Made by a program: the position numbers and the translations under genes
IMG/VR virus record: IMGVR_UViG_2913177423_000001
Location: 1 to 64,000 of that record
DNA: 64,000 bases
Source of the DNA: a virus
Taxonomy: Duplodnaviria; Heunggongvirae; Uroviricota; Caudoviricetes
Reading direction: 5' to 3' (one strand)
In this document: positions 9,842 through 48,124 of the stretch, one piece after another
Position numbering within the stretch: the stretch's first letter is position 1
Layout: every line of letters begins with the position of its first letter
Notes under the pieces: generated by a model
The model's database searches: none
The model's input: only the letters and a program-made list of their open reading frames with translations
What the model was told of the DNA's origin: nothing

Positions 9842-10183
9842 GCTGTTGCTAAATCGCAATGTATGATCTGCATCATCGACTGAAATCATCCATTGCTGAA
9901 ATTTTTAGTTGATCTTCCTAATGTTCAGGCTTATATTCACGTCGTCGTAGCAAATTCTGCGACCAGGTTTGACAGCCTGAATGTTAGTGCGGACAACCGC
10001 AGATTTCCGATATTGCGGTATTTTTGTGTCCGTAAACCGCGTTACGCCCGAATTATGGTGGGGCGTGATGGGGAGGCTTCGGCCTGCTGGTTTCACTAAC
10101 GCCAGTCTGTCAACCCTGTCACGTCCTGCCACCTGTTTGACAGCGGGTAGCAGGTTGTTAAACCTGTTAGTGAGGCCGTAACT

Positions 10184-10408
10184 ATGGTTAATGCCAATCC
10201 TTGCTCACGTCCAGAATTCATCTGGCGTTTCCACTCCCTGCAAAAACACTGCGATCACTTCGCAATTGCCGCAACCGAAAAAGAAGCCCGTTCTCTGATC
10301 CCTGATCAGTATGGTGTTCTTACTGGTCGTTTCTCTACTTCCCAACAACCAAACACTAATCCCTGGTATCGCAATATTACCAATCCCGGCATTGCGGAGG
10401 CACACTGA
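10184..10408 (+). CDS. hypothetical 74-aa protein, paralog of 46953..47168
   Basis: ATG with GTGAGG upstream; shares EFIWRF and AATE-EAR motifs with ORF 46953. Confidence 0.5.
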   Translation: MVNANPCSRPEFIWRFHSLQKHCDHFAIAATEKEARSLIPDQYGVLTGRFSTSQQPNTNPWYRNITNPGIAEAH

Positions 10409-11115
10409 TGGATATCTGCATTCTTGAAAAGCCATCAATGACCAGCATTGAGATCGCGGAGCTGGTGGGAAGTCGTCCAGATAACGTAAAAATATCAATA
10501 GAGCGCCTGGCTAAATCTGGAGTTATTCAACTTCCTGCATTGCAGGTTTTCGAAAAAATCAATAACTTAGGACTACGCCGTAGTGTCGAGGCTTACGTCT
10601 TCGAAGGCGAGCAAGGCAAACGAGACAGCATTATTGTCGTTGCGCAGCTCTCTCCCGAATTCACCGCCCGGCTGGTGGACCGCTGGCGCGAACTGGAAGA
10701 ACAAGCACGCCAGCCGTTGACCGAAATAGAGATGATCGCCGCAATGGCTGCAAATGCAGTTCAGCAACAAAAGCGGCTTCATGTTGTTGAGTCAAAGGTT
10801 AGCCAGGTGGTAGAAACCGTCGAGCAAATCAAGAAGGGCAACATGCCAGATGGTTACATTGGCTACCGCCAGCTGGCGGCGAAATGTGGCCTGACCGAAG
10901 CCAAATGTCGCAACCTGGTTAACGCTTACCGGATTCCCACCGATACGCATGAGTTTTTAACGCCAGAGGGGATATTGTCGCGTCGTTCTATTGTGGCCTT
11001 ATTTCCCTTTATGAACGCTTTTACCCTGATGATGTCGGAGGCCGAGCGCCGCGGGAAACGCTGGTATCACCCAAGAATGGGCCAATTCCAGGTGATCGGT
11101 TGGGGAGGTGAGTGA
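10408..11115 (+). CDS. Rha-family phage regulatory protein
   Basis: N-terminal MTSIEIAELVGSRPDNV motif typical of Rha proteins; ATGA coupling; paralog of 47168..48094. Confidence 0.6.
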   Translation: MDICILEKPSMTSIEIAELVGSRPDNVKISIERLAKSGVIQLPALQVFEKINNLGLRRSVEAYVFEGEQGKRDSIIVVAQLSPEFTARLVDRWRELEEQARQPLTEIEMIAAMAANAVQQQKRLHVVESKVSQVVETVEQIKKGNMPDGYIGYRQLAAKCGLTEAKCRNLVNAYRIPTDTHEFLTPEGILSRRSIVALFPFMNAFTLMMSEAERRGKRWYHPRMGQFQVIGWGGE

Positions 11116-11312
11116 TGGACATCATGCAGGCGGTAAAAAATATCAGGGAAGGACGGGCTGAAGTGTGCCGCCGCAAAGCATGGAATATTGGTGTATGGGC
11201 ATGGCCTGATAATTGCTCTACAACCGGATGGTTTTGTATTAACGGACACCAGATCCGGGAAGTTGATTTATCGACGGCTGATATAGTCGGTAATGATTGG
11301 ATCGCGACTTGA
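11112..11312 (+). CDS. hypothetical 66-aa protein, homologous to the C-terminus of 47168..48094
   Basis: shares VCRR, GVW-WP and DWI motifs with the C-terminal part of the fused paralog. Confidence 0.45.
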   Translation: MMDIMQAVKNIREGRAEVCRRKAWNIGVWAWPDNCSTTGWFCINGHQIREVDLSTADIVGNDWIAT

Positions 11313-11320
11313 AGCGTGAT

Positions 11321-11346
11321 GCCCCGGCCTGGCCGGGGCTTTTTTC
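11321..11346. terminator. bidirectional intrinsic terminator
   Basis: GCCCCGGCC-tg-GCCGGGGC hairpin followed by TTTTTT; lies between convergent genes. Confidence 0.7.
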
Positions 11347-11830
11347 ATGCCTCATTGGTTGAGGTTGCTGCATCTCCGACTGGTAACAGAGCTGTATTGC
11401 GTGGCTCGCCAGCAGGCCAGCGATAGCCCGACACTCTTGATGTCGGGAATGCACGAATATTCACCGCATCCCCCTGGTTCCCACCCAGGACAAGCAGATC
11501 GCCATTGGCGCGGCGTCCGACGATGAAGCCTACATGCCCACCGCCTACGCGGGTAAATACAACGATACATCCGTATGCTGGTGTATCCAGTTTCTCGCCC
11601 CAATCCAGATAGGATTTTGCCGACTCAAATCTTGTTGAGCGGATACCCACACGCTCTAACATTGCGCCAACAAATGCTGCGCACCACGGAGTTTCATCGT
11701 CTTTAATTCCGCCGCGTTTAATATCCCTCCAGAACTGGACGATTTCTGGATTGTGTTTAGCCCCTTTGATTTCAGTCAGGCCAATATGTTTACGGGCTTC
11801 CATCAGCCAACGAGGATCGGAACTTACCAT
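11345..11830 (-). CDS. CHAP/TIGR02594-like peptidoglycan hydrolase, endolysin candidate
   Basis: ATG with GAGGGG upstream; Cys motif TPWCAAFV and His motif GGHVGFIVG typical of CHAP-type hydrolases. Confidence 0.5.
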   Translation of the reverse strand: MVSSDPRWLMEARKHIGLTEIKGAKHNPEIVQFWRDIKRGGIKDDETPWCAAFVGAMLERVGIRSTRFESAKSYLDWGEKLDTPAYGCIVVFTRVGGGHVGFIVGRRANGDLLVLGGNQGDAVNIRAFPTSRVSGYRWPAGEPRNTALLPVGDAATSTNEA

Positions 11831-12021
11831 AACTACCCCTCTGATTAACAAACGAACATAAACTATGGGGAGTATGTGATTTTCATGGCAGCAATTTTCT
11901 TATCCCGGTACGCCCATAAGCCTTCCTTGTCCGTGGCATGTTGAGTGTTAACCGTATACTGAATGTTTGAGCTTTCTCATTAATTAACTATATGATTTAA
12001 ATCATAAATGTTGTTACGTTT

Positions 12022-12064: not shown

Positions 12065-12436
12065 ATGAGACTGACAAGAAGAAAAAAAGAGATACTCAGC
12101 TACTTTGAACCGGATAACCGTGAGTGGGTGACAATGGAGATTGGATCGCCTCCGTTTGATGTGTCCGGGGTGGCTTACTTGCTGCATAGTACGGATGCAA
12201 TCGACAAACAGTATTATCTCGAATCAACAAGGCGAACACTTGAGGCTATGGTGCGTGATGGCCTGCTTGAACGGGTAAAATCGTATGAGAGGCGACAGAA
12301 CAGGACTCAGAGCGGTTGTGGCGATGGTGTTCGTTGTATGGTTGTTCGTTATGGCCTTCCAGGTCAGTGTGCTGTTATGCGAGATGATGCCGGGGGTGAA
12401 CACGCAATAGACGGTGAGTTCGTTCGTATCGCCTGA
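12065..12436 (+). CDS. hypothetical 123-aa protein upstream of darB-like gene (Ulx position)
   Basis: ATG at 12065; stop abuts the giant ORF; function inferred only from position. Confidence 0.45.
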   Translation: MRLTRRKKEILSYFEPDNREWVTMEIGSPPFDVSGVAYLLHSTDAIDKQYYLESTRRTLEAMVRDGLLERVKSYERRQNRTQSGCGDGVRCMVVRYGLPGQCAVMRDDAGGEHAIDGEFVRIA

Positions 12437-15400
12437 CCTTTTCCGCTCTTATTCTTCCAAATTAACACACTCCATACCCTTTCAAACCGTACCGCTACAG
12501 GCGGATTTAACGGTTTTGAGGGGGCTTCCTTTGGACAAAATAATTGATTCAATTAGCCAGGCCACCAGCATTGGGGCGCTGATTGAAATTGTTAGTCGGT
12601 TGCATAAACCGCGATCTGTTGCGACCTTTGGCGTTAAGAAAGTCGATGGTGTCAGCATTCAAAAAACACGGCGGGCAGCAAACAACGCCGCAGTAGAGCT
12701 TCTTAATTCCCTTCCGCCCGGATTCGATGGGGCGAAATTAACTGAAGAACAGCGTCAGATTCTCGCCGGGTATACAGGTGAAGGCGGCCTTACTGACGGC
12801 GAGGGCAGCCAATACGAATACTACACACCACAGTTTATGGCTGAAGGTATATGGGATCTGTTTGCTGACTACGGTATTGATGGGGGTCATGTACTGGAAC
12901 CATCAGCTGGCACGGGTATTTTCCAGGAGACAAAACGGCAGGGAATGATAATGACCAGCGCCGAGCTGTCTCCGATCTCCGGTCGAATCAACCAGCTGTT
13001 GCACCCGGAAGACGATGTGAACATTGGGGCGTTCGAGGCTCTGGCGGCGAAAGACGCAATGTATGACCACGCTGTTGGTAACGTACCGTTTGGCGAAGGC
13101 CGTTCCGGCGTTGCAGGGCTTGATCCGGCATATGCAAACGAGAAGAACGTTGGCAATTACTTTGTGCTGCGCACGATCGACAAGGTTAAACCTGGTGGGC
13201 TTATCGTATTGGTGGTGCCGAATGGCATGACTGATGGTACGAAATACAAAAAATTGCGCGATAAAGTCAGCCGTAAAGCGGAATTTTTGGGCGCGCATCG
13301 TATGCCTTCCGGTACGTTCAGTGAATCAGGTACAGATACCGTGGTGGACGTATGGGTATTGCGTAAACATCCAGAAGCCTTCCTGGAGATGATCCCCGAT
13401 ACGGACGATTCGACGCTCAAATCGGCAAACGTCCTTTGGGATACCTTTCTCAAAGGGAAATGGTTCACTACGGAAGGAAAACGCTTTGTTTACGGCGATA
13501 TGGAGCGTACCAGCTTCCGCAATACCCTGGTGGTGAAAAAGGACGGTCGTGTATCCAATGAGTCGATGAAAACCGCGCTATCTCGTCGCTTTGATAGTCG
13601 CATCAATTGGGATTTGCTCGGCGTAACTACTCAGGCATGGCAGGGCGCGAAAGTGGGCGATAAACGCCTTGTAGGCGGCATCTGGCATGAGTTTGATGGC
13701 CTGAAATGGGTCAAGGACACGACAACCAAATCCTCCGCGCTTGATGTAAGCCGATATGGTGTTTCGACGTTTGGCGATCTGCAGATCGCGTTTCAGTCAA
13801 CAAATGGCATTCTGGCGTTGTCATGGGACCAGATATCGGCGATCGCGTCCGACTATCCATCGGTTATCAGTGATGAAGTAGCTGCAATGATTCGCTTTGC
13901 AGGCAAGCAGCGAGAAAAAGACAGAGAGCGCGTTATGCGCGGCGCACTGATAGGGCAGTTGATCAACAAGGCGCTTGATTTGCGTAACCTGGGGGTGAAT
14001 GTTGATGACAAACTGGCAGATGCATCCCGCCTGGCGGCAGCAGAAGTTGCGAAGTATGGACCACCGCACGCGATTAAGCTGAATGGGATTGTTGAAGCTG
14101 GCGCTAAAAACTGGATGACGTTCACTGGGAACGTGAAACAGGATGGCTCTACTTCGGACCTTCTTGCCGGACGACTTGATGTAACTAATGGCGCATCAGG
14201 TATCGACTTTGCTCGCCCGGAACAGGTTGTTACACACCTTTTCAGCGATGTGGCCCTTAATCCGATAACACTGGACGATTTCCGTGAGGCGTTTACTGGC
14301 GAACTGCCAGAAGACGACGATGCCGCTCTGGAATACCTGGCTAAATTTGAAGATATCGCTATTGATGGGTATGGCTGCCTGCTACCAATGGACCGCGCCA
14401 CCAGCGGCGACATTGCAACCAAAACAGCATTGCTGGTGGGCTGGCGTGATGCAGCAACAGGTGAGCAGAAAGCGAACTTTGAGCGCCAGTTGGCGAAAAT
14501 CGAAGAGAAACGCATTTTCACGCCACTAAATAAAGTCACCGTTAATCTGAATGCCCGCTGGCTGGACCGCCGCTTGATAAAAGAGTTCCTGGCAGAACAG
14601 GGCTATGACGAGTTTAAGTACACAGAACCTGATCTGAAGGTCGTCGATGGCATTCTGGTATCCCCGGACGATTACGAAGGTAAGGACGGGGTATTTACTG
14701 GCTATCAGCTACGAACCGTAAACGGCAAAAACGGGAATGAGTTCAAGAAGGCCAACAATAAAGACGGCTTCCTGAACCAGTTAGAAAACTACCTGAACGG
14801 CGTCAAACCGCGAGGGCAGAACGCTAACGAGTACCTGGATAAGATTGCTCAACTTGAAGTTAGCTTTAACGACTGGTTACGCACTCACCCGCAGGCTGAT
14901 CAGATAGCCCGCGACTATAACGACGCATTCAATGGCTTCATCCCGTTTACACATTCTGACGCACCGCTTGGCCTGGAAGGGATTAGTGGGAAGCGCATTC
15001 CTCTGACTTATCAGAATGAGGAAGTTCGTCGCTTGTCAGAAGATGGGCGCGGCATCATGGGATTTGGCACCGGGCTTGGTAAAACCACGACTGCGCTTGC
15101 ACTTGAGGCGTATAACTTCGAAACAGGCCGAACTAAACGCACCTGTATTGTTGTCCCGAAAGCGGTTTATCAGAACTGGTATCACGAGGCTCAGAGCTTC
15201 TACAGTCCAGAAGCCTTCTCAAATATGATGTTTATCGGGCTTGATGAAGTTCGTGATGACGGCGGCAATATTCTTACCGCGCCAGTGCTTGATGAAAATG
15301 GTGAACCACGTCTGGACAGAAACGGTCAGCCTCTTACCCGCAATGTGGTGAAAGAGTCCTCCAGTGCCGTTATCGTTCAGCGCATGAACATGATCCCGTC

Positions 15401-18400
15401 GTCAAATTGGCGAACGGTCATCATGACAAAAGAACAATTCGCGTCTATCCCGCTACGAGAAAAAACCATCGAGGAGAACTCACAGCAAGCTGTCTTTAAT
15501 GCTGTTGAAATGGGGCGTCTTGACCTGGCGTCTGGCAAGCACCGTGACGCGCAGAAGAAGAACAAGATTAAGGACCAGGCCGCAAATACCGGGACCACGA
15601 AGAAGCAGAATATCCCGTACTTTGAGGATATGAACTTCGATAGCGTGATTGCCGACGAAGGGCATAACTACCGCAACTCATTTAATGCCGGGCGTGAAGC
15701 GGGGCAGATGGCATATTTGCCTAACCCGGCAGTATCCAAAATGGCCCGCGACATGGCTGTAAAAGCTGCGTACATGATGAAACGCAACAACGGGCGCGGA
15801 GTAGTTATGCTGACGGCAACACCGCTGGTGAACAGTCCGATTGATGCTTTCAACATGCTGTCTACTGTTATTCCGCAGGAAGAGTGGATGCGCATGGGCA
15901 TTATTACGCCGGATGATTTCGTTCGTGTGTTTGGCAAAACTGCCACCGTTCAGGTCCAGAAAATTTCCGGGGAAGTGGAAGAGAAGCAGGGGCTGGTGGG
16001 CTTCCAGAACCTTGATGGTCTGCGTGGTATTTTCCACCGTTGGACCACTCTGAAGACTGCTGCGGATGTTGGAGCGACGGTCAAAATCCCCGACATCATC
16101 GAGAATACCTTGCAGATCCCGATGACAGGGGAGCAGGAGGCTGCTTATGAAGAGCTTCGCAAGCGTGCACAAGAATTAAGTCGTAAAGATGCGCTGACAG
16201 TCGATGAAAGCGGGCATATCACAAGCGAAAAGCCGGATGACTTCATCTTCTCCATCATCCGCGACATGGATAAGGTTGCTATAGATCCGGATCTGTATGC
16301 CAGTGCGATTACATTCCAGTTCCCCGTTGAGCTTGCAGACAAGGTAAAAGCTATTGCTGATGGCCTGCCAAAAGTAGCTGGCGGTAAAGTGGCAGATGAT
16401 GCAGACGAGGCCGAGGAAGACGGCGCTGGCGGGCTGGTTAGTACGCGTACCAGCAAGGTAGTGAAGACCACCTTTAGTGAACATCCGGCGCATGTTGAAA
16501 TACGTGCCAGCATTGAACTGGAGGCTGAAATACTGAAGGCCATTGCTGCCGCCGGGATTGATATGCAGCAGGTATCACACCCCATCCCGCCGAAGTATGC
16601 CGCGCTGATCGAAAACCTTCGTGAAGGCCTGAAGAACGGTAAACAAATCGTCTTCATTGATGAAAAAGCCCAGCACCAGAAGCTGCGCCGTATTATCGCC
16701 AGTGCACTGCAAATGCCGGAGCAGGAGATAGGCATTATCAATGCGACGACCGTTAGCCAGGCTGGCGGCATCAAGCTGAAGAAGGTGAATAAGCCGACCG
16801 AACCTACTCCGAATAAAAACGGTGAATACAAAGAAGGGGCATGGGAAACCTACTACAGCAAACTTGCCCAATATGAGGATTATCTCTCAGCTAAAAATGA
16901 TGCTGGCCTTGAGGGTATGGAAGGCATTGCCGCCGACTATAACGAAGGTCGCACGCGCATCATTATCTGTAACAAGAAGGCTGAAGTAGGTATTAACCTG
17001 CATATCGGGACAACCGATATCCACCACCTGACACTACCCTGGACACCAGCCAGTATCGACCAACGAAATGGGCGCGGTGCGCGCGTAGGTTCACCGCAAG
17101 AGAAGGTCAATGTTCACTACTATTGTGGCAAAGGCACATTCGACGACTTCCGTCTGGATACGCTGAAACGTAAGAAAGACTGGATCAAGATGGTGATGAC
17201 CTCCGACATGTCAGAGATCGCCAATGGTGATGCGGATGATGCTGATGAACGCGCCATTATGCTGGCGGCAAACCCGGAAGAACGCCGCGCAATCATGGCT
17301 CGCCAGGCGCAAGAGCGTGAAGAACGTCTGAAACTGAAAGCACAGCGCGAGGCCAACAATGCTCTCGATATCTACCTGAAAGCGGCAAACGCCGCCGGAA
17401 AAGATATCGGCATGATGGAGACAGAACTGAAAAGCGCGATGGAACAGATAGAGTATTACCAGCGAAATCTTGACGACCTGATAAAAGCGGGTACGAACAG
17501 GAATGGGCAAAAATACGCGCTTGAGCAGTTGAGTAGCTACAGAAAACGTGCGCGGGTGCTGCGGTTTGCGATCACCAGGGCAAAAGACGCGGATACCATA
17601 ATGAAACGCTCTCGTGGTGATGTGGAGCGCGCTATTAAGTCTGGTGTGCTGGATATCAGTATCGATGTTATTCAGAACCCACAGGAATATATGCGCACTG
17701 ACAAGAATATCCTGTTGCATAAAGGTAGTTATTACCGTGCAGTCATTGATGATCGCGAAACAACAGCGATTGTCCGGGTGGAAAAAATTGACGGTGAAAA
17801 AGCACAATACCTCTGCCGTATCGCCTGGCTGGATAGAGCAAGTCGTTACGCTCGATCACCGGGGTCTATCGTTACATTGCCGTTTGACTCTGTGATTGAA
17901 GCGGTAACTTTTGAAGAGGGGGTAGCTGAATCGCGCGCAACGGCTGCGCGTGGTGTTCAGTGCCACCAGCTATCAACAATACTTACTCGCGATCAGTTCT
18001 ATGATGCTATTCGCAATGGGGTAATGAATGTTATTGCTGGTAAACCTGGTAATGCATGGGGCGGTGGGTCAGCTATTAAATACTGGGCATATCGCACAGA
18101 TGATGGTCAGATCGCGCTGTCATCGGCCTATGATGGCGTGATAGGCCAAAAAATCGGGCGAGCATCGGATATAGCACCTGAGCGATGGATATATCCTGAT
18201 GGCAACGACGAGGCGCTGAAGCGTGAAGTGGCAAAAATACAAGCCAGTGATAACCCGCTGAATATCGTGGACGGCGAGGGATTCCTCCAGGCATTGTATG
18301 GGTATGATTACATCCAGGGAATGCAGGCATGGGGCGCACAGGCAACGATGGATGATGTTGCCCAGGAGTTCGAAAACTGGATGGCTGGGCGTGGTCTGTC

Positions 18401-19367
18401 AGGTCGCTCGCTTAATAAAGTCACTTCTGAAGATATTCTTAGCTTGTTCCGCAAACCGTCCGGAGAAGGTCTGGAATCATTCTGGAGGACCGTGCTGGCA
18501 TACCGTTTATTCAAGGGCAGGATGAAAGCCTTTAGCAATATCGATGATATTGAACGGATGTTTAATCAGGTCAAGATCGCGAAAATTAAGACGAAGATCG
18601 AAAAGACACGTTCTGCGCTGGTGGCCTGGCGCGATGCATTGTTTGAGCAATATAAATCACTCAGTGATGCAGATGGATGGGCGGCACTGGAACAGTTGGC
18701 GAATAATGGGGTAGATGGAGCGAAACTCGCCATAGTCCAGGCTGATAACCCCCTGGAATCACCGGCAGCACAGTGGATTAAGGTGGGTGCTGTCATCAAT
18801 GCCTTTGATGAAAAACACATCAGTAAGGACGATTTTGCTGATGCTGTTTCCCTTAATCGCCTGGTAGAAATGGCTGTCCGCCGCGCTCGTGAGTTGAAAG
18901 ACGGTGACTATGTGAATGAGTTGCCAGATGCGCTCAAATCGGCAACGTGGCAAGACTATGTATCGCTGAAAAACGGCGGGGCCACTGAATCAGAGATCGC
19001 GGAAAGGCTTGAGCAGGCTGAAAGCAAAAGAGAAGAGCAGGCGGCAGAGGCTGAAGCCAGGGCTGATGAAGCGGCGAATGATGACTATATCATTGTGGTT
19101 AATGATAAGCCGATTCGCGCTAAGGCACGTGTTCGCGGGCGCTGGTGGAGTGTCAGCGAGGACGTTGGCGCGGTTTATCTCATTGCCGATCAGCCAGGTT
19201 CCTCGACAATACGGAACGCCAAAGACGCCATTAAGAAGATTGGCGGGCGTTTCTGGAATTTTGAAGCAAACCCGGTTGCTGATGTGAACTTTGACCGTCC
19301 GGCATGGATGGTATCTACGCGTTACTCGGTAGATGAACTGCGTAAAATAATAACCAACGCGGCCTAA
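12414..19367 (+). CDS. darB: DarB-like giant methyltransferase-helicase, putative anti-restriction protein
   Basis: 2317-aa ORF; SAM-MTase motifs LEPSAGTGIF and NVPFGE, helicase motifs GFGTGLGKTT, DEGH and QRNGRGARVGS; true start probably TTG near 12531 after GAGGGG. Confidence 0.8.
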   Translation: MSSFVSPDLFRSYSSKLTHSIPFQTVPLQADLTVLRGLPLDKIIDSISQATSIGALIEIVSRLHKPRSVATFGVKKVDGVSIQKTRRAANNAAVELLNSLPPGFDGAKLTEEQRQILAGYTGEGGLTDGEGSQYEYYTPQFMAEGIWDLFADYGIDGGHVLEPSAGTGIFQETKRQGMIMTSAELSPISGRINQLLHPEDDVNIGAFEALAAKDAMYDHAVGNVPFGEGRSGVAGLDPAYANEKNVGNYFVLRTIDKVKPGGLIVLVVPNGMTDGTKYKKLRDKVSRKAEFLGAHRMPSGTFSESGTDTVVDVWVLRKHPEAFLEMIPDTDDSTLKSANVLWDTFLKGKWFTTEGKRFVYGDMERTSFRNTLVVKKDGRVSNESMKTALSRRFDSRINWDLLGVTTQAWQGAKVGDKRLVGGIWHEFDGLKWVKDTTTKSSALDVSRYGVSTFGDLQIAFQSTNGILALSWDQISAIASDYPSVISDEVAAMIRFAGKQREKDRERVMRGALIGQLINKALDLRNLGVNVDDKLADASRLAAAEVAKYGPPHAIKLNGIVEAGAKNWMTFTGNVKQDGSTSDLLAGRLDVTNGASGIDFARPEQVVTHLFSDVALNPITLDDFREAFTGELPEDDDAALEYLAKFEDIAIDGYGCLLPMDRATSGDIATKTALLVGWRDAATGEQKANFERQLAKIEEKRIFTPLNKVTVNLNARWLDRRLIKEFLAEQGYDEFKYTEPDLKVVDGILVSPDDYEGKDGVFTGYQLRTVNGKNGNEFKKANNKDGFLNQLENYLNGVKPRGQNANEYLDKIAQLEVSFNDWLRTHPQADQIARDYNDAFNGFIPFTHSDAPLGLEGISGKRIPLTYQNEEVRRLSEDGRGIMGFGTGLGKTTTALALEAYNFETGRTKRTCIVVPKAVYQNWYHEAQSFYSPEAFSNMMFIGLDEVRDDGGNILTAPVLDENGEPRLDRNGQPLTRNVVKESSSAVIVQRMNMIPSSNWRTVIMTKEQFASIPLREKTIEENSQQAVFNAVEMGRLDLASGKHRDAQKKNKIKDQAANTGTTKKQNIPYFEDMNFDSVIADEGHNYRNSFNAGREAGQMAYLPNPAVSKMARDMAVKAAYMMKRNNGRGVVMLTATPLVNSPIDAFNMLSTVIPQEEWMRMGIITPDDFVRVFGKTATVQVQKISGEVEEKQGLVGFQNLDGLRGIFHRWTTLKTAADVGATVKIPDIIENTLQIPMTGEQEAAYEELRKRAQELSRKDALTVDESGHITSEKPDDFIFSIIRDMDKVAIDPDLYASAITFQFPVELADKVKAIADGLPKVAGGKVADDADEAEEDGAGGLVSTRTSKVVKTTFSEHPAHVEIRASIELEAEILKAIAAAGIDMQQVSHPIPPKYAALIENLREGLKNGKQIVFIDEKAQHQKLRRIIASALQMPEQEIGIINATTVSQAGGIKLKKVNKPTEPTPNKNGEYKEGAWETYYSKLAQYEDYLSAKNDAGLEGMEGIAADYNEGRTRIIICNKKAEVGINLHIGTTDIHHLTLPWTPASIDQRNGRGARVGSPQEKVNVHYYCGKGTFDDFRLDTLKRKKDWIKMVMTSDMSEIANGDADDADERAIMLAANPEERRAIMARQAQEREERLKLKAQREANNALDIYLKAANAAGKDIGMMETELKSAMEQIEYYQRNLDDLIKAGTNRNGQKYALEQLSSYRKRARVLRFAITRAKDADTIMKRSRGDVERAIKSGVLDISIDVIQNPQEYMRTDKNILLHKGSYYRAVIDDRETTAIVRVEKIDGEKAQYLCRIAWLDRASRYARSPGSIVTLPFDSVIEAVTFEEGVAESRATAARGVQCHQLSTILTRDQFYDAIRNGVMNVIAGKPGNAWGGGSAIKYWAYRTDDGQIALSSAYDGVIGQKIGRASDIAPERWIYPDGNDEALKREVAKIQASDNPLNIVDGEGFLQALYGYDYIQGMQAWGAQATMDDVAQEFENWMAGRGLSGRSLNKVTSEDILSLFRKPSGEGLESFWRTVLAYRLFKGRMKAFSNIDDIERMFNQVKIAKIKTKIEKTRSALVAWRDALFEQYKSLSDADGWAALEQLANNGVDGAKLAIVQADNPLESPAAQWIKVGAVINAFDEKHISKDDFADAVSLNRLVEMAVRRARELKDGDYVNELPDALKSATWQDYVSLKNGGATESEIAERLEQAESKREEQAAEAEARADEAANDDYIIVVNDKPIRAKARVRGRWWSVSEDVGAVYLIADQPGSSTIRNAKDAIKKIGGRFWNFEANPVADVNFDRPAWMVSTRYSVDELRKIITNAA

Positions 19368-23811: not shown

Positions 23812-23888
23812 GGTGGTGTAGCTCAGTAGGATAGAGCAGCAGCCTTCTAAGCTGTCGGTCGGTGGTTCGAATCCACTCACCATCGCCA
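23812..23888 (+). tRNA. tRNA-Arg (anticodon UCU)
   Basis: cloverleaf readable by eye: acceptor GGTGGTG/CACCATC, D-arm GCTC-AGTAGGATA-GAGC, anticodon loop CTTCTAA, T-loop TTCGAAT, encoded CCA. Confidence 0.8.
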
Positions 23889-23892
23889 AATT

Positions 23893-23968
23893 GCCGATTT
23901 AGCTCAGTTGGTAGAGCAGTCGCTTTGTAAGCGAATGGTCAGCGGTTCGATCCCGTTAATCGGCACCA
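23893..23968 (+). tRNA. tRNA-Thr (anticodon UGU)
   Basis: acceptor GCCGATT/AATCGGC, D-arm GCTC-AGTTGGTA-GAGC, anticodon loop TTTGTAA, T-loop TTCGATC, encoded CCA. Confidence 0.8.
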
Positions 23969-25440: not shown

Positions 25441-25516
25441 GGCCCCTTAGCTCAGTGGTTAGAGCTGGCGACTCATAATCGCACGGCCATCGGTTCAAAT
25501 CCGGTAGGGGCCACCA
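25441..25516 (+). tRNA. tRNA with CAU anticodon, probably tRNA-Ile2 (lysidine) rather than Met
   Basis: acceptor GGCCCCT/AGGGGCC, D-arm GCTC-AGTGGTTA-GAGC, anticodon loop CTCATAA, T-loop TTCAAAT, CCA; 5-prime half resembles enterobacterial ileX as recalled. Confidence 0.75.
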
Positions 25517-34184: not shown

Positions 34185-34871
34185 ATGAAGGAAAAGCTTT
34201 TGAAGACGCTCCCTGAGTACAAATACCACGGAACCATTCGCGCATCGAAAATCAAAAAGATCAAGCCTATTGGCGGATTAATTCCTCTCTGGGGTGATAT
34301 TGAGGTCACCGAACCAAAAGGGGTAACGATTCGTGTTGATTTAATGTTTTTACAAAAATACCGACCACAAATTGGCGGGTATTTGGTCGTTCATGAGGAC
34401 GGATATTTGTCCTATTTATCAGAAAAAACATTTAAAGAGGGCTTTAGTCGAATTGATGACATCTCAGAAAATGAAACAACAGTCATCATTGCCGATGACA
34501 AAGGCATGATGATTAATCTTGCCGGGATCGTATCTATTTATGCTGATGACATCACTAACCAACAAGAAGAAATCGACCTTGAGGCAGCCGACTTTTCTGA
34601 CGCGCTGATGTGGCTGAAGGATGGCAAGAAAGTTGCTCGACGCGGGTGGAACGGCGAAAACCAATTCTGCTGGCTGGTTCCTGACAAACAGGGCGCTTCA
34701 AGACTAACCCCTATAAAACATGCCGCAAGCGGAGAGCTTGAAATCAATTTCGGCTCGCCCCTTGCTCCTTATGGAGAGCATTTCACTTTGAAAAATGCAC
34801 AAGGTGTCTTTCTTCCGTGGCTACCTTCTGTCGGCGACCTGCTGGCATGTGACTGGTTTGTAGTGGAGTGA
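34185..34871 (+). CDS. protein with C-terminal DUF2829 (Tad2-like) domain
   Basis: C-terminal ALMWLKDGKKVARRGWNGENQF and WLPSVGDLLACDWFVV are a strong DUF2829 signature; unique 130-aa N-terminal domain. Confidence 0.6.
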   Translation: MKEKLLKTLPEYKYHGTIRASKIKKIKPIGGLIPLWGDIEVTEPKGVTIRVDLMFLQKYRPQIGGYLVVHEDGYLSYLSEKTFKEGFSRIDDISENETTVIIADDKGMMINLAGIVSIYADDITNQQEEIDLEAADFSDALMWLKDGKKVARRGWNGENQFCWLVPDKQGASRLTPIKHAASGELEINFGSPLAPYGEHFTLKNAQGVFLPWLPSVGDLLACDWFVVE

Positions 34872-46171: not shown

Positions 46172-46952
46172 TTTTATGTTGAGTTTGAAATTTACTGATT
46201 GTACATTTTGATTAGATTGGTTCACCGCTCGACGCAACGAGACAAATCCTCAAGGATTTCGTATGATTGCCAATGTCATAGTTATGGCAGCGCAATACAG
46301 GTGGCTAAAAGCCCCCGTTGACTCACGGTGTTCCAACCTGTATTGCGCCGCCACCAGACCGTGGAACAGTCTGTGACGGCTTCGAAAGCAAGGAGTCACT
46401 ATGAACAATTACAAACTTTTCCCATCACTCACCGTCTACTCACGCAATAACCTGCGTTCTTTGCTCCCATCAAAACTGGAGGGAGTATCAAAATGACCGT
46501 TCGCTACCTGAATTATCAAATCCAGAACATCACTGGCGGTTGCTATGACTGGTTTGTCACTCTTGGTAAAGAAGTGATCACCGGGAAGCTGGATGAAGTG
46601 AAAGCTAAAGCAATGGCCTACGCCTGCAAGCAAGCCCAAAAGAAGAAAAGAAAAGCATAAGAAAACACACTGTTGCGCCCTGGCATTATCGTGGGGTATA
46701 TTTCTACGGCACCTTAGAAAAACGGGTGCCGGGATTGGTCTCCCGGTAATGTCAAAGGCGACACATAGACGCCGCAAGCGTCTTTTTTGTTGTCGGCGCA
46801 CTCGCACACCTATCAATGGTGGGCTGTGTGGTGGCTTCCTCGGAAGCGCCGGTTCCCTTTGACGCCGGTAAGACCAACTCCACACAGTCCACCGCCAGTA
46901 AGATTGGTCTCTTCGGCGGTGGTATCGTTCACTGTCAAAGGAGGCTGCCAAT

Positions 46953-47168
46953 ATGGCTACTACCCCTACCCCAACTCATTCTGAATTTATCTGGCGTTTC
47001 TATTCCTGCCAAAAACACCTGTATATCTGCGTAATGGCTGCTACCGAAGCAGAAGCTCGCTCATACCTTCCTGATACTCCCTGCATTTTTGCTGCCCGCT
47101 TCACTCTTGATGCGATGGAGATCCTCAATTACTGGAATCTGCCGATGAACTGCGTGGAGGTGCACTGA
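46953..47168 (+). CDS. hypothetical 71-aa protein, paralog of 10184..10408
   Basis: ATG with AAAGGAGG upstream; shares EFIWRF and AATEAEAR motifs. Confidence 0.5.
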   Translation: MATTPTPTHSEFIWRFYSCQKHLYICVMAATEAEARSYLPDTPCIFAARFTLDAMEILNYWNLPMNCVEVH

Positions 47169-48094
47169 TGAATCTGTCCATCTCTCAAAAAGCGACAATG
47201 ACCAGCATTGAGATCGCGGAGCTGGTAGGTAAGCGTCCTGATAACGTTAAACGCACCATTGAACACCTAGCGGAACGGGGCGTAATATCTTTTCCTCAAA
47301 TTGAGGAAAAGCCCACCGCAGGGCGCCCGGCGAGCTATTACGTCTTCGAAGGCGAGCAAGGCAAGCGCGACAGCATTATTGTCGTCGCACAGCTTTCTCC
47401 TGAATTTACCGCCCGGCTGGTGGACCGCTGGCGCGAACTGGAGAATGCCAGGGGACCGTTAAAAACAAAGGCCGAAATTCTGGCTGAAATGGCGCAAATG
47501 CATCTTGAGCATGAACGCAGGATCAACGCCGTAAATGCCCAGGTAGCCGAAGTTTCGGCACAAGTGTCCAGGGTCGCTGAAACCGTCGAGCAAATAAAGA
47601 AAGGCAATATGCCGGAAGGTTACATTGGCTACCGCCAGCTGGCGGCGAAATGTGGCTTGACTGAAGCCAAATGTCGCAACCTGGTCAACGCTTACCGTAT
47701 CCCCACCGATACGCATGAGTTTTTAACGCCCGATGGTTTGCTTGCCCGACGCTCCATTGTGGCCCTGGCCCCCTTCCGGAAAGCCTTTAAGCAGGTTATG
47801 TCGGAGGCCGAACCACGTAATAAACGCTGGTATCATCCAAAAATGGGCCTCTTTCAGGCAATCCACCATCCTTTACCGAAAATCCCAAAAGATAATCTGT
47901 CACTGCATACAGCCAGAGAGAAGATCAGAAGTGGATATGCAACGGTATGCCGTCGTGCCTCATGGTCTGAAGGTGTATGGGTATGGCCCGAAGGCGGATC
48001 AAGGAAGCACTGGCGCACTATCCGAGATGGTAAAATTCATGCTATTGATTTAGCGCCAGAGGATATGGTTGCTATGGACTGGATTGTTAGTTAA
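47168..48094 (+). CDS. Rha-family phage regulatory protein fused to a C-terminal small domain
   Basis: N-terminal MTSIEIAELVGKRPDNV; colinear with 10408..11115 plus 11112..11312 combined. Confidence 0.6.
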   Translation: MNLSISQKATMTSIEIAELVGKRPDNVKRTIEHLAERGVISFPQIEEKPTAGRPASYYVFEGEQGKRDSIIVVAQLSPEFTARLVDRWRELENARGPLKTKAEILAEMAQMHLEHERRINAVNAQVAEVSAQVSRVAETVEQIKKGNMPEGYIGYRQLAAKCGLTEAKCRNLVNAYRIPTDTHEFLTPDGLLARRSIVALAPFRKAFKQVMSEAEPRNKRWYHPKMGLFQAIHHPLPKIPKDNLSLHTAREKIRSGYATVCRRASWSEGVWVWPEGGSRKHWRTIRDGKIHAIDLAPEDMVAMDWIVS

Positions 48095-48102
48095 TTACTG
48101 TT

Positions 48103-48124
48103 GCCCCGGCCTGTCCGGGGCTTT
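48103..48124 (+). terminator. putative terminator hairpin (paralogous to 11321-11346)
   Basis: GCCCCGGCC-tgt-CCGGGGC followed by a short TTT. Confidence 0.4.

Follow-up and report, generated by a model that had tools for sequence, protein, structure and literature searches.

The 64,000 nucleotides considered here—positions 1 to 64,000 of IMG/VR record IMGVR_UViG_2913177423_000001, a member of the Caudoviricetes, all of which we call the window—come from a phage D6-like, P1-related phage-plasmid. Within them lie two related gene modules, A (~9909-11346) and B (~46673-48124), and we consider it quite probable that each is a complete immunity operon of the immI type: a leader with target sites a1/b1, a gene for a C4 antisense RNA, an icd-like gene, a Rha/Roi-type antirepressor gene, a small unit predicted to have the fold of the anti-defense protein Tad2, and ultimately, a hairpin. 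In module A, the small unit is a gene of its own; in module B, it is the C-terminal domain of the antirepressor. Our confidence attaches to this explanation as a whole, which takes the modules to be two immI-type operons of a D6-like phage-plasmid, the split versus fused difference to be old, and the Tad2-fold unit to be gated by C4 RNA.

How alike are the two modules? An earlier reading of the window (the original prediction) called them paralogous gene for gene, and so they are. The five open reading frames (ORFs) that it named stand exactly where it put them in the ORF list (10184-10408, 10408-11115, and 11112-11312 in A; 46953-47168 and 47168-48094 in B), as do both hairpins; all lie on the + strand, as does every feature below unless marked otherwise. 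BLASTP matches the two Rha-type proteins to each other (161/238 residues identical, 68%, E 2e-110), the first small ORFs to each other (24/51, 47%, E 7e-16), and the 66-amino acid (aa) ORF of A to residues 244-308 of the 308-aa protein of B (26/65, 40%, E 1e-17); the small domain is indeed a separate, overlapping ORF in A and a C-terminal fusion in B. The hairpins are related as well, with 22 of 23 positions identical (TGCCCCGGCCTG[G/T]CCGGGGCTTT; A stem 11321-11339, B hairpin 48103-48124), and this similarity across ORFs and hairpins is far beyond chance. Nor does the homology end with the Rha domain: the nucleotide alignment runs from the start of the first ORF past the stops and into the hairpins. 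In module A, the hairpin is an intrinsic terminator by scan and by fold (11321..11346; GCCCCGGCC, loop TGG (?), GCCGGGGC, then T6), with 8 G-C pairs and TTTTTT. Its counterpart after the B antirepressor gene (48103..48124), homologous to the A stem by alignment, folds at -16.3 kcal/mol and is then followed only by TTTAAC, and the terminator scan made no call there. What the original prediction missed is what the modules are, namely immI-type C4 antisense RNA/icd/antirepressor operons; the homologous unit is, moreover, larger than the span it gave (10184-11346 in A), because a leader and a C4 antisense RNA gene lie upstream in each module.

Phage D6 (NC_050154) has both modules in the same forms, split (orf19/18/17) and fused (orf83/82), annotated there as icd-like and anti-repressor, with 92.6% nucleotide identity to module A and 86.9% to module B. 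The neighborhoods are also the same: repL on one side of module A and a peptidoglycan hydrolase and darB on the other, with ref and pmgF/simB flanking module B. D6-like plasmid prophages, such as pYU39_89, share all of this, and a second c4-icd region in a D6-like plasmid has already been noted (PMC6799933). Module A is present whole in ~110 plasmids and module B in 91, mostly non-mobilizable and ~90 kb long.

In P1, the C4 antisense RNA of immI keeps icd and the antirepressor Ant from being expressed (PMC8198154), and the RNA parts of such a switch can be traced in both modules. Module A opens with a promoter-like site (TTGATC-17-TATATT, 9909..9937; consensus scan) directly upstream of the a1/b1 leader, a position that is suggestive only, as the scan gave 1 match where 1.8 were expected. 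The leader itself (9931..9983), which holds the upstream C4 targets, matches Rfam RF03163 c4-a1b1 at 52.6 bits against a gathering score of 46.7. Complementarity to the C4 RNA of this module (C4-A) marks a1 (TTGACAG, 9970-9976) and b1 (GTTAGTG, 9983-9989), the latter beginning on the last base of the RF03163 match and extending just past it. Next comes the C4-A gene (10051..10136; RF01695, 68.8 bits against 45; b' loop UUUCACUAACG, a' CUGUCAA), with a minimum free energy fold of -42.5 kcal/mol and the architecture that one would expect. The downstream target span (10137..10175), composed of exact complements of the C4-A loops, contains a2 (TTGACAG, 10138-10144), which is complementary to the a' stretch, and b2 (GTTAGTGAGG, 10167-10176), which covers the Shine-Dalgarno sequence of icd-A and has its last base just beyond the span. 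The complement of b', GTTAGTG(A), is present both upstream, as b1, and downstream, within b2.

Module B has the same plan with different letters. Its leader (46709..46788) resembles isrK, a short RNA with its own terminator, over the full length of the Rfam model (RF01394, 61 bits against a gathering score of 50), and it holds a1 (TTGGTCT, 46735-46741; complement of the C4-B a' stretch), b1 (GTCAAAGG, 46751-46758; complement of the C4-B b' loop), and a terminator hairpin found by scan (AGACGC...GCGTCT plus T6; hairpin 46767-46783). The C4-B gene (46812..46899; RF01695, 73.7 bits against 45; b' loop UUCCCUUUGACG, a' AGACCAA) folds at -44.1 kcal/mol, and the downstream span of loop complements (46904..46943) contains a2 (TTGGTCT, 46904-46910; complement of a') and b2 (GTCAAAGGAGG, 46934-46944), which covers the icd-B Shine-Dalgarno sequence and again has its last base just beyond the span. 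The isrK-orf45-anrP region of Salmonella Gifsy-1 is alike in that the module B leader, terminator included, matches the isrK model and precedes a small ORF region and an antirepressor with overlapping stop and start (PMC4825925); the likeness is known for leader and layout. Unlike Gifsy-1, where IsrK, a short RNA, acts in trans as an activator of translation and a C4 RNA has not been described (PMC4825925), module B has a full C4 RNA between its isrK-like leader and icd.

A 39-aa "ash family protein" coding sequence annotated in RefSeq/GenBank plasmids (L003, L004 543-662; window ~46787-47034) sits on the module B C4 gene; an RNA gene has probably been mistaken there for a coding one. Gifsy-1 orf45, in which the nucleotide sequence is conserved and the amino acid sequence is not (PMC4825925), may be a mistake of the same kind. 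In other plasmids, the module B region bears the annotations "transcriptional regulator" and "ash family protein"; taken at first for a possible split B gene, they are really the downstream pmgF-like gene and the short coding sequence over the C4 RNA.

Is each C4 RNA matched to its own operon? Exact complements of 7-8 nt to the C4 loops stand upstream and downstream in cis in both modules, with b2 8 to 10 nt before the icd ATG, and the two C4 RNAs differ in their recognition loops. The predicted duplexes are consistent with this: the downstream target of module A pairs at -28.6 kcal/mol with C4-A and -15.6 with C4-B, and that of module B pairs at -32.8 with C4-B and -18.0 with C4-A (overall, cognate pairs span -26 to -33 kcal/mol and noncognate ones -16 to -18). 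Over seven loci—both modules of the window, both modules of D6, two ~90-kb contigs to which we will return (L006 and L007), and a P1-type IncY plasmid—five b specificities and three a specificities occur, each matched in cis. Such covariation of loop and target is good evidence, at the level of sequence, for functional pairing and for separate control of the two operons in one genome; because the loops differ and each has its own matching targets, the operons should be independently controlled. The window differs from D6 in both modules (module A b, GTTAGTGA versus ACTTACGA; module B a, TTGGTCT versus TTGAGAC, and b, GTCAAAGG versus GCAAAAGG), while in module A, its C4 loops and targets are identical to those of the P1-type IncY plasmid (NZ_CP122909), which would imply that immI immunity types are shuffled among elements of the P1/D6 group.

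The protein-coding part of each operon begins with an Icd-like cell-division inhibitor gene: icd-A (10184..10408, 74 aa; NCBIfam NF033153 phage_ICD_like, 40 bits against a cutoff of 25; phrog_1426, E 1e-38), the counterpart of which in D6, orf19, is annotated "similar to P1 gene icd," and icd-B (46953..47168, 71 aa; 50.2 bits against 25; phrog_1426, E 9e-41). In both modules, the icd stop and the antirepressor start overlap as TGATG (10404-10410; 47164-47170), and the two genes are presumably coupled in translation. The putative antirepressor ant-A (10408..11115, 235 aa) is of the Rha/Roi type and lacks the small domain; it matches phrog_63 "anti-repressor Ant" (E 3e-46) and, above cutoff, Pfam HTH_24. 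Against Phage_pRha (PF09669), it scores 21.5 bits, under the gathering cutoff of 29.9, and it is 68% identical to ant-B, which passes at 30.6. The fused protein ant-B (47168..48094, 308 aa), which matches phrog_63 to the end of the profile (E 4e-64), is laid out as a Rha winged helix-turn-helix (residues 11-93), a Roi-like middle and C-terminal part to ~230, a proline-rich linker (HHPLPKIPKD, 233-242), and the Tad2-fold domain (244-308; nucleotides 47897-48091), over which phrog_7385 matches residues 247-307 (E 5e-16). Neither antirepressor has a KilAC/ANT match in Pfam. The same Rha winged helix and Roi-like C-terminal half are found in the Rha/Roi proteins of lambdoid phages (HK97 or HK022 Roi and the "DNA-binding protein" of Stx phages); the genes of Stx and Klebsiella prophages have 66-72% nucleotide identity over ~675 nt and match the antirepressor part only. 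Unlike those of the window, the lambdoid genes are not behind a C4 RNA or an icd gene, and they lack the small Tad2-fold domain. Among B-type proteins, the N-terminal winged-helix region (residues ~22-60) is hypervariable.

The regulation that we propose is modeled on P1. The order of each operon would be promoter, a1/b1 leader, C4 RNA, a2/b2 with b2 on the ribosome-binding site of icd, icd-like gene, antirepressor, small Tad2-fold unit, and hairpin. In a lysogen, C4 RNA would be cut from the operon's own transcript and would pair with a2/b2, blocking icd translation, and the downstream genes, placed on TGATG overlaps and so translationally coupled, would be silenced along with icd. On entry into a cell without matching C4 RNA, Icd, antirepressor, and small unit would all be made together. 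Module A keeps the small unit as a third, presumably coupled gene, and module B has it joined to the antirepressor through the proline-rich linker.

That leaves the question that the original prediction raised about the split itself: did a frameshift—or a sequencing error—break module A, or did a duplication produce a gene fusion? At the junction in A, the Rha gene ends in ...GGT TGG GGA GGT GAG TGA, and the small gene begins at the ATG of TGATG. That is, the sequence reads GGAGG-N5-TGATG, with a Shine-Dalgarno sequence seven bases upstream of the ATG and with stop and start overlapping. The stand-alone small gene (11115..11312, 65 aa, MDIMQ...; predicted minimal Tad2/DUF2829 fold), coupled, it would seem, to ant-A by GGAGG and TGATG, most likely starts at ATG 11115 and not at the GTG 11112 of the 66-aa ORF, because the annotation of D6 orf17 (there merely a hypothetical protein) and the protein cluster P0001 use the same start.

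In the broken-copy explanation, a frameshift or an assembly or sequencing error would have split a fused gene, leaving the 66-aa ORF as a pseudogene remnant. It draws on two real facts—the small ORF runs in frame -1 to the Rha gene, the stop of which it overlaps, and frameshifted copies of the B gene do exist in public assemblies—and yet we give it almost no credence. D6 and 19 of 20 independent A-type loci of IMG/VR share the junction, GGAGG and TGATG included (three of these loci carry a silent T/C change; L029, the remaining one, differs by a small deletion there). The module is held whole by ~110 plasmids, and a separately annotated small gene accompanies nearly all of the top matches, down to ~91% identity. 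Across the 21 A-type copies compared, nothing interrupts the small ORF, and the ratio of nonsynonymous to synonymous substitution rates (dN/dS) is 0.26-0.57, although over few sites. Aligning the nucleotides to locate the indel, as the original prediction proposed, gave none: what lies between the last and first alignable codons, 26 nt in A and 43 nt in B, has no recognizable similarity, and no single indel links the two forms. As a recent event or an artifact, the broken copy is refuted.

Programmed -1 ribosomal frameshifting at 11100-11115, which the original prediction also suggested, would make a fused Rha-small-domain protein from A and so render the two modules functionally the same. The -1 relation between the frames would allow such a product, and P1 makes two Ant polypeptides from one region (PMC8198154), but the idea seems to us extremely improbable: a reading of GGTTGGGGAGGTGAGTGATGG and of positions 11095-11115 turns up no slippery heptamer of the form X-XXY-YYZ, the sequence that does stand there is a textbook coupling signal of Shine-Dalgarno and overlapping stop and start, and the icd/ant junctions of both modules use the same TGATG device.

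What remains is that the split and fused forms represent an old, fixed difference between diverged paralogs, both of them intact and under purifying selection. The fused domain at the C terminus of ant-B has a dN/dS of 0.06-0.11, the fused gene is intact in D6, and its homologs (306-314 aa, 76-96% identity) are spread over hundreds of E. coli and Salmonella contigs of ~90 kb. Synonymous divergence (dS) between the A and B copies is saturated, at 1.1 for icd, 0.93 for ant, and 2.5 for the small unit. Because the junction is conserved, the ORFs are intact, dN/dS lies below 1, and dS is saturated, we take the difference to be neither an error nor a pseudogene nor a recoding site. It is an ordinary fusion or fission between paralogs, and annotation pipelines should keep both forms as genes.

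What is the small unit? The sequence evidence for its kinship with Tad2—a phage protein that blocks a bacterial defense system, sequestering gcADPR and inhibiting Thoeris—is weak but consistent, and the structural evidence is clear. The small ORF of A matches Pfam PF11195 (Tad2-like) end to end at 17.3 bits (E 0.007), and the C-terminal domain of ant-B has no match to PF11195; both units fall below the curated gathering cutoff of 25 bits for membership in the family. Three relatives score 23.9 bits (P0124, E 6e-5), 14 bits (P0125), and 37.4 bits (P0127, E 3.6e-9), the last passing the cutoff. When PDB was searched with the family profile, five of eight matches were Tad2 or AcrIIA7 chains, and hhalign aligned the small unit at full length with ModTad2 and with the window's own canonical Tad2-like domain (P 0.002-0.003). 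An AlphaFold2 model from a nine-sequence alignment has a predicted local distance difference test (pLDDT) of 92.3 and a predicted template modeling score of 0.75, and its top 17 PDB matches in Foldseek are all Tad2 structures, with template modeling scores of 0.68-0.76. The fold so predicted is that of Tad2: helix alpha1 and then an antiparallel sheet of five strands, the last of them preceded by a short helix. A first model from 3 sequences (pLDDT 64, Foldseek E above 1) had been discarded, a word-indexed protein search with the 66-aa ORF gave only 2 close relatives, and a single-sequence search of PDB gave nothing. A candidate relationship to Coi, the small C1 inactivator of P1, was rejected, there being no similarity (hhalign E 0.37 over 6 columns).

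Set beside the Tad2/DUF2829 family (PF11195; SPO1 Tad2, ModTad2, HgmTad2/AcrIIA7), the small unit shares the N-terminal helix, the antiparallel sheet, and the short C-terminal helix, together with the conserved motifs R-x-x-W and D-x-x-x-x-D-W. It differs in being ~25 residues shorter and in occurring fused to an antirepressor under predicted C4 antisense control. It lacks the beta2-beta3 loop and helix alpha2, the dimer interface of Tad2, where the alpha2 loop forms the dimer or tetramer. The main gcADPR contacts of SPO1 Tad2 are W25, N26, W73, and D79 (bioRxiv 10.1101/2023.05.01.538930), of which, by sequence alignment, W25 and D79 have equivalents (W23 and D56); N26 corresponds to position 24, which is N in the A copy of the window and S in B and most A-type copies, and W73 is replaced by V50 in A or by I in B.

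The element has a canonical version too. A 228-aa protein at 34185-34871 (+) carries, in residues 136-227, a canonical Tad2-like domain (PF11195, 74.4 bits; phmmer E 1e-12 to ModTad2), which brings the element to three Tad2-fold domains. A 2025 preprint reports Tad2_AcrIIA7 in 93% of D6-like phage-plasmids (10.1101/2025.09.12.675607), a figure that probably refers to this canonical domain and not to the immI units, because the latter fall under the Pfam cutoff.

The small unit also occurs elsewhere. P0124 (on an 88-kb contig; a source names it a Raoultella plasmid protein) and P0125 (on a 90.5-kb contig) lie directly behind a full c4-a1b1 and C4 module with no icd and no antirepressor between; the C4 b target immediately precedes the start codon of each, and a terminator comes after. 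This arrangement is the one seen in L007 (3746-4207) and L006 (3752-4291), ~90-kb phage-plasmid-like contigs in which the small Tad2-fold gene is the sole gene behind a complete c4-a1b1 and C4 module, with a b2 target (CACTCAAGAAA) just before its ATG and a terminator after it. In L040 (1491-2230; IMGVR_UViG_2778261184_000002), a 708-bp deletion equivalent to window 47131-47839 takes the 3' end of icd-B and codons 1-224 of ant-B, leaving an 83-aa ORF of linker and Tad2-fold domain four bases past the new icd stop; P0132 and P0134 (81-83 aa), which match this ORF, are on 7 and 11 contigs. The small unit is thus placed repeatedly under C4, in four architectures: C4-small unit, C4-icd-ant-small unit, C4-icd-ant fused to the small unit, and C4-truncated icd-small unit. 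Because all four are under C4, the pattern argues for an independent functional unit, the expression of which would be meant only for cells without the cognate C4 RNA.

Such confined expression would fit an early anti-defense role, and a role as partner of the antirepressor appears about equally likely; that is, from its predicted fold, the unit may bind an immune signaling nucleotide or may serve the antirepressor. Suppose that it were, like Tad2, a sponge for a nucleotide immune signal (gcADPR-type or a cyclic oligonucleotide), and that C4 let it be made only during infection and lytic growth. Its fold matches that of Tad2/AcrIIA7 specifically, three SPO1 contacts have equivalents (the asparagine in this A copy), a homolog is the only gene behind the C4 RNA of two other phage-plasmid contigs, and early, C4-gated expression suits anti-defense. 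But the tryptophan at W73 is gone, the dimer interface is missing, Pfam is under cutoff for A and silent for B, the element already has a canonical Tad2-like domain, and one would not expect a free sponge to be fused to an antirepressor. We regard the sponge as possible but rather unlikely.

Alternatively, the small unit could be a subunit or domain of the antirepressor—for oligomerization, repressor contact, or ligand-dependent control—acting in trans in module A somewhat as in the Ant1-Ant2 complex of P1. In D6-like elements, it is always co-expressed with the antirepressor, it is tightly coupled to it in A and fused to it in B (and interacting partners often fuse), and the fused domain is under the strong purifying selection noted above. 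Yet Roi/Rha-type homologs of lambdoid phages do without it, in L040 and the P0132/P0134 families it outlasts the deleted antirepressor part, the C4 switch of L006 and L007 carries nothing else, and it has no similarity to the P1 anti-repressor Coi. This reading is plausible to us without being probable. A bolder idea, offered as speculation that we think unlikely, is that P1-type C4 antisense switches carry the minimal Tad2-fold unit as a recurrent payload and that, if the unit binds an immune signaling nucleotide, it is an antisense-gated sponge or makes an alarm-responsive antirepressor. Were nucleotide binding to be true, the sponge would be absent from the lysogen and would appear only upon infection or induction, a simple natural case of an anti-defense function tied to the lysis-lysogeny switch, and in the fused form, antirepressor activity would answer a host immune alarm, linking detection of an ongoing infection to prophage escape.

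Which form of the gene came first? We lean toward fusion in the B lineage as the derived state, because stand-alone forms of the unit and Roi/Rha proteins without the small domain both occur elsewhere, an argument from parsimony. A search of 1.84 billion representative proteins with the small-unit profile returned only seven: one fused cluster (D6-like ant-B), A-type fragments, and three stand-alone proteins, P0124 (96 aa), P0125 (68 aa), and P0127 (96 aa). The family thus appears small and isolated, with the fused architecture confined among these representatives to one 50%-identity cluster and the stand-alone forms found in several; the outgroups P0124 and P0125 both stand alone. Of the duplication-made fusion that the original prediction entertained, then, a fusion in the B lineage stands as the more likely direction, but the event is ancient, and nothing ties it to a recent duplication.

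The explanation advanced here is not free of difficulties, and the following points weigh against it. The operator consensus of P1 (ATTGCTCTAATAAATTT) has no match in the 64-kb window at three or fewer mismatches, and the element's own C1 may recognize another sequence; a layer of C1 control like that of P1 would be conjectural here. That ant-A and ant-B would inactivate the element's C1 repressor is an annotation by similarity, and P1's own Ant1 is KilAC-type, not Rha-type. The breaks in some public B-type copies in IMG/VR (a C5 run grown by one C, a 2-nt deletion, a stop codon, and the 708-bp deletion) raise the possibility that some lineages can do without the antirepressor part of module B or are losing it. 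The direction of fusion or fission rests on few outgroups, with junctions too diverged to reveal the event. Finally, the two modules may not be an intragenomic duplication at all: their leaders differ in type, P1-like c4-a1b1 in A and isrK-like in B.

This last point opens onto a serious alternative, in which the element acquired a P1-like and a Gifsy/isrK-like immI-type cassette on separate occasions and recombination later made them partly alike; we would put its chances a little below even. Besides the leaders, which belong to different Rfam families, the 3' end of c4 and the 5' half of icd in module A are 83-90% identical to ~470 P1-type plasmids, and those of module B are not. Identity between A and B is mosaic (29-93% per 45 columns of alignment), synonymous difference falls to 0.20-0.28 only in ant residues 147-186, and the natural B-type proteins P0113 and P0122 carry an A-type middle segment. 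Against separate acquisition, the gene order is the same, including the rare small domain and a homologous terminal hairpin, which is simplest to explain as one ancestral unit, and the divergence is too saturated to date either scenario. Whatever their origin, the mosaic identity, the low synonymous difference in ant 147-186, and the P0113/P0122 proteins suggest that recombination between the two copies is ongoing.

Measured against immI of P1/P7, the two operons that we propose have much that is familiar: an RF01695 C4 gene, a1/b1 and a2/b2 sites with b2 on the icd ribosome-binding site, and an Icd-like first gene with a stop/start overlap to the antirepressor gene. They are unlike it in having Rha/Roi-type antirepressors where P1 Ant1/Ant2 are KilAC-type, in numbering two per genome with different C4 specificities, in the small Tad2-fold gene or domain, in the placing of repL (upstream of module A in the window, downstream in P1/P7), and in the lack of a P1-type C1 operator in the window. 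In P1-type plasmids, DNA similarity to module A stops inside icd, and one of them (L043) has a 347-aa KilAC-domain protein after icd. The immI type of system and the D6-like phage group are known; the two C4 channels and a C4-gated Tad2-fold unit in split and fused form appear to be undescribed, and in the literature searched, which left the D6 genome paper outside, we found no Tad2-fold domain fused to an antirepressor or under C4 control. Two internally compensated C4 specificities per genome would extend the heteroimmunity of P1/P7 to two channels with at least five loop/target pairs, and a hitherto unannotated small gene and domain can be assigned, by its modeled structure, an anti-defense fold.

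Several smaller observations bear on the antirepressor genes and the surroundings. The extra C in the C5 run (CTGGCCCCCTTCC to CCCCCC, residue ~202) occurs in L035, L037, L038, and L039 (~locus 1875), the 2-nt deletion in L036 (~1735), and the stop codon, at codon 46, in L034; these interrupted B-type genes could represent real decay, phase-like variation, or homopolymer sequencing errors. P0113 and P0122 (306 aa) are fused B-type antirepressors with an A-type middle segment (EEQVRQPLTEIEMIAAMAANAVQQQKRLH...), recombinants between the two paralogs. A CHAP-domain peptidoglycan hydrolase gene (11345-11851, - strand; TIGR02594-type in relatives) converges on module A and uses its terminator hairpin too, and a DarB-like methyltransferase/helicase gene (12414-19367, + strand, 2317 aa) follows. 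Three tRNA genes (23812-23885, 23893-23965, and 25441-25513; Rfam tRNA, 65-68 bits each) correspond to the tRNA region described for D6-like plasmids.

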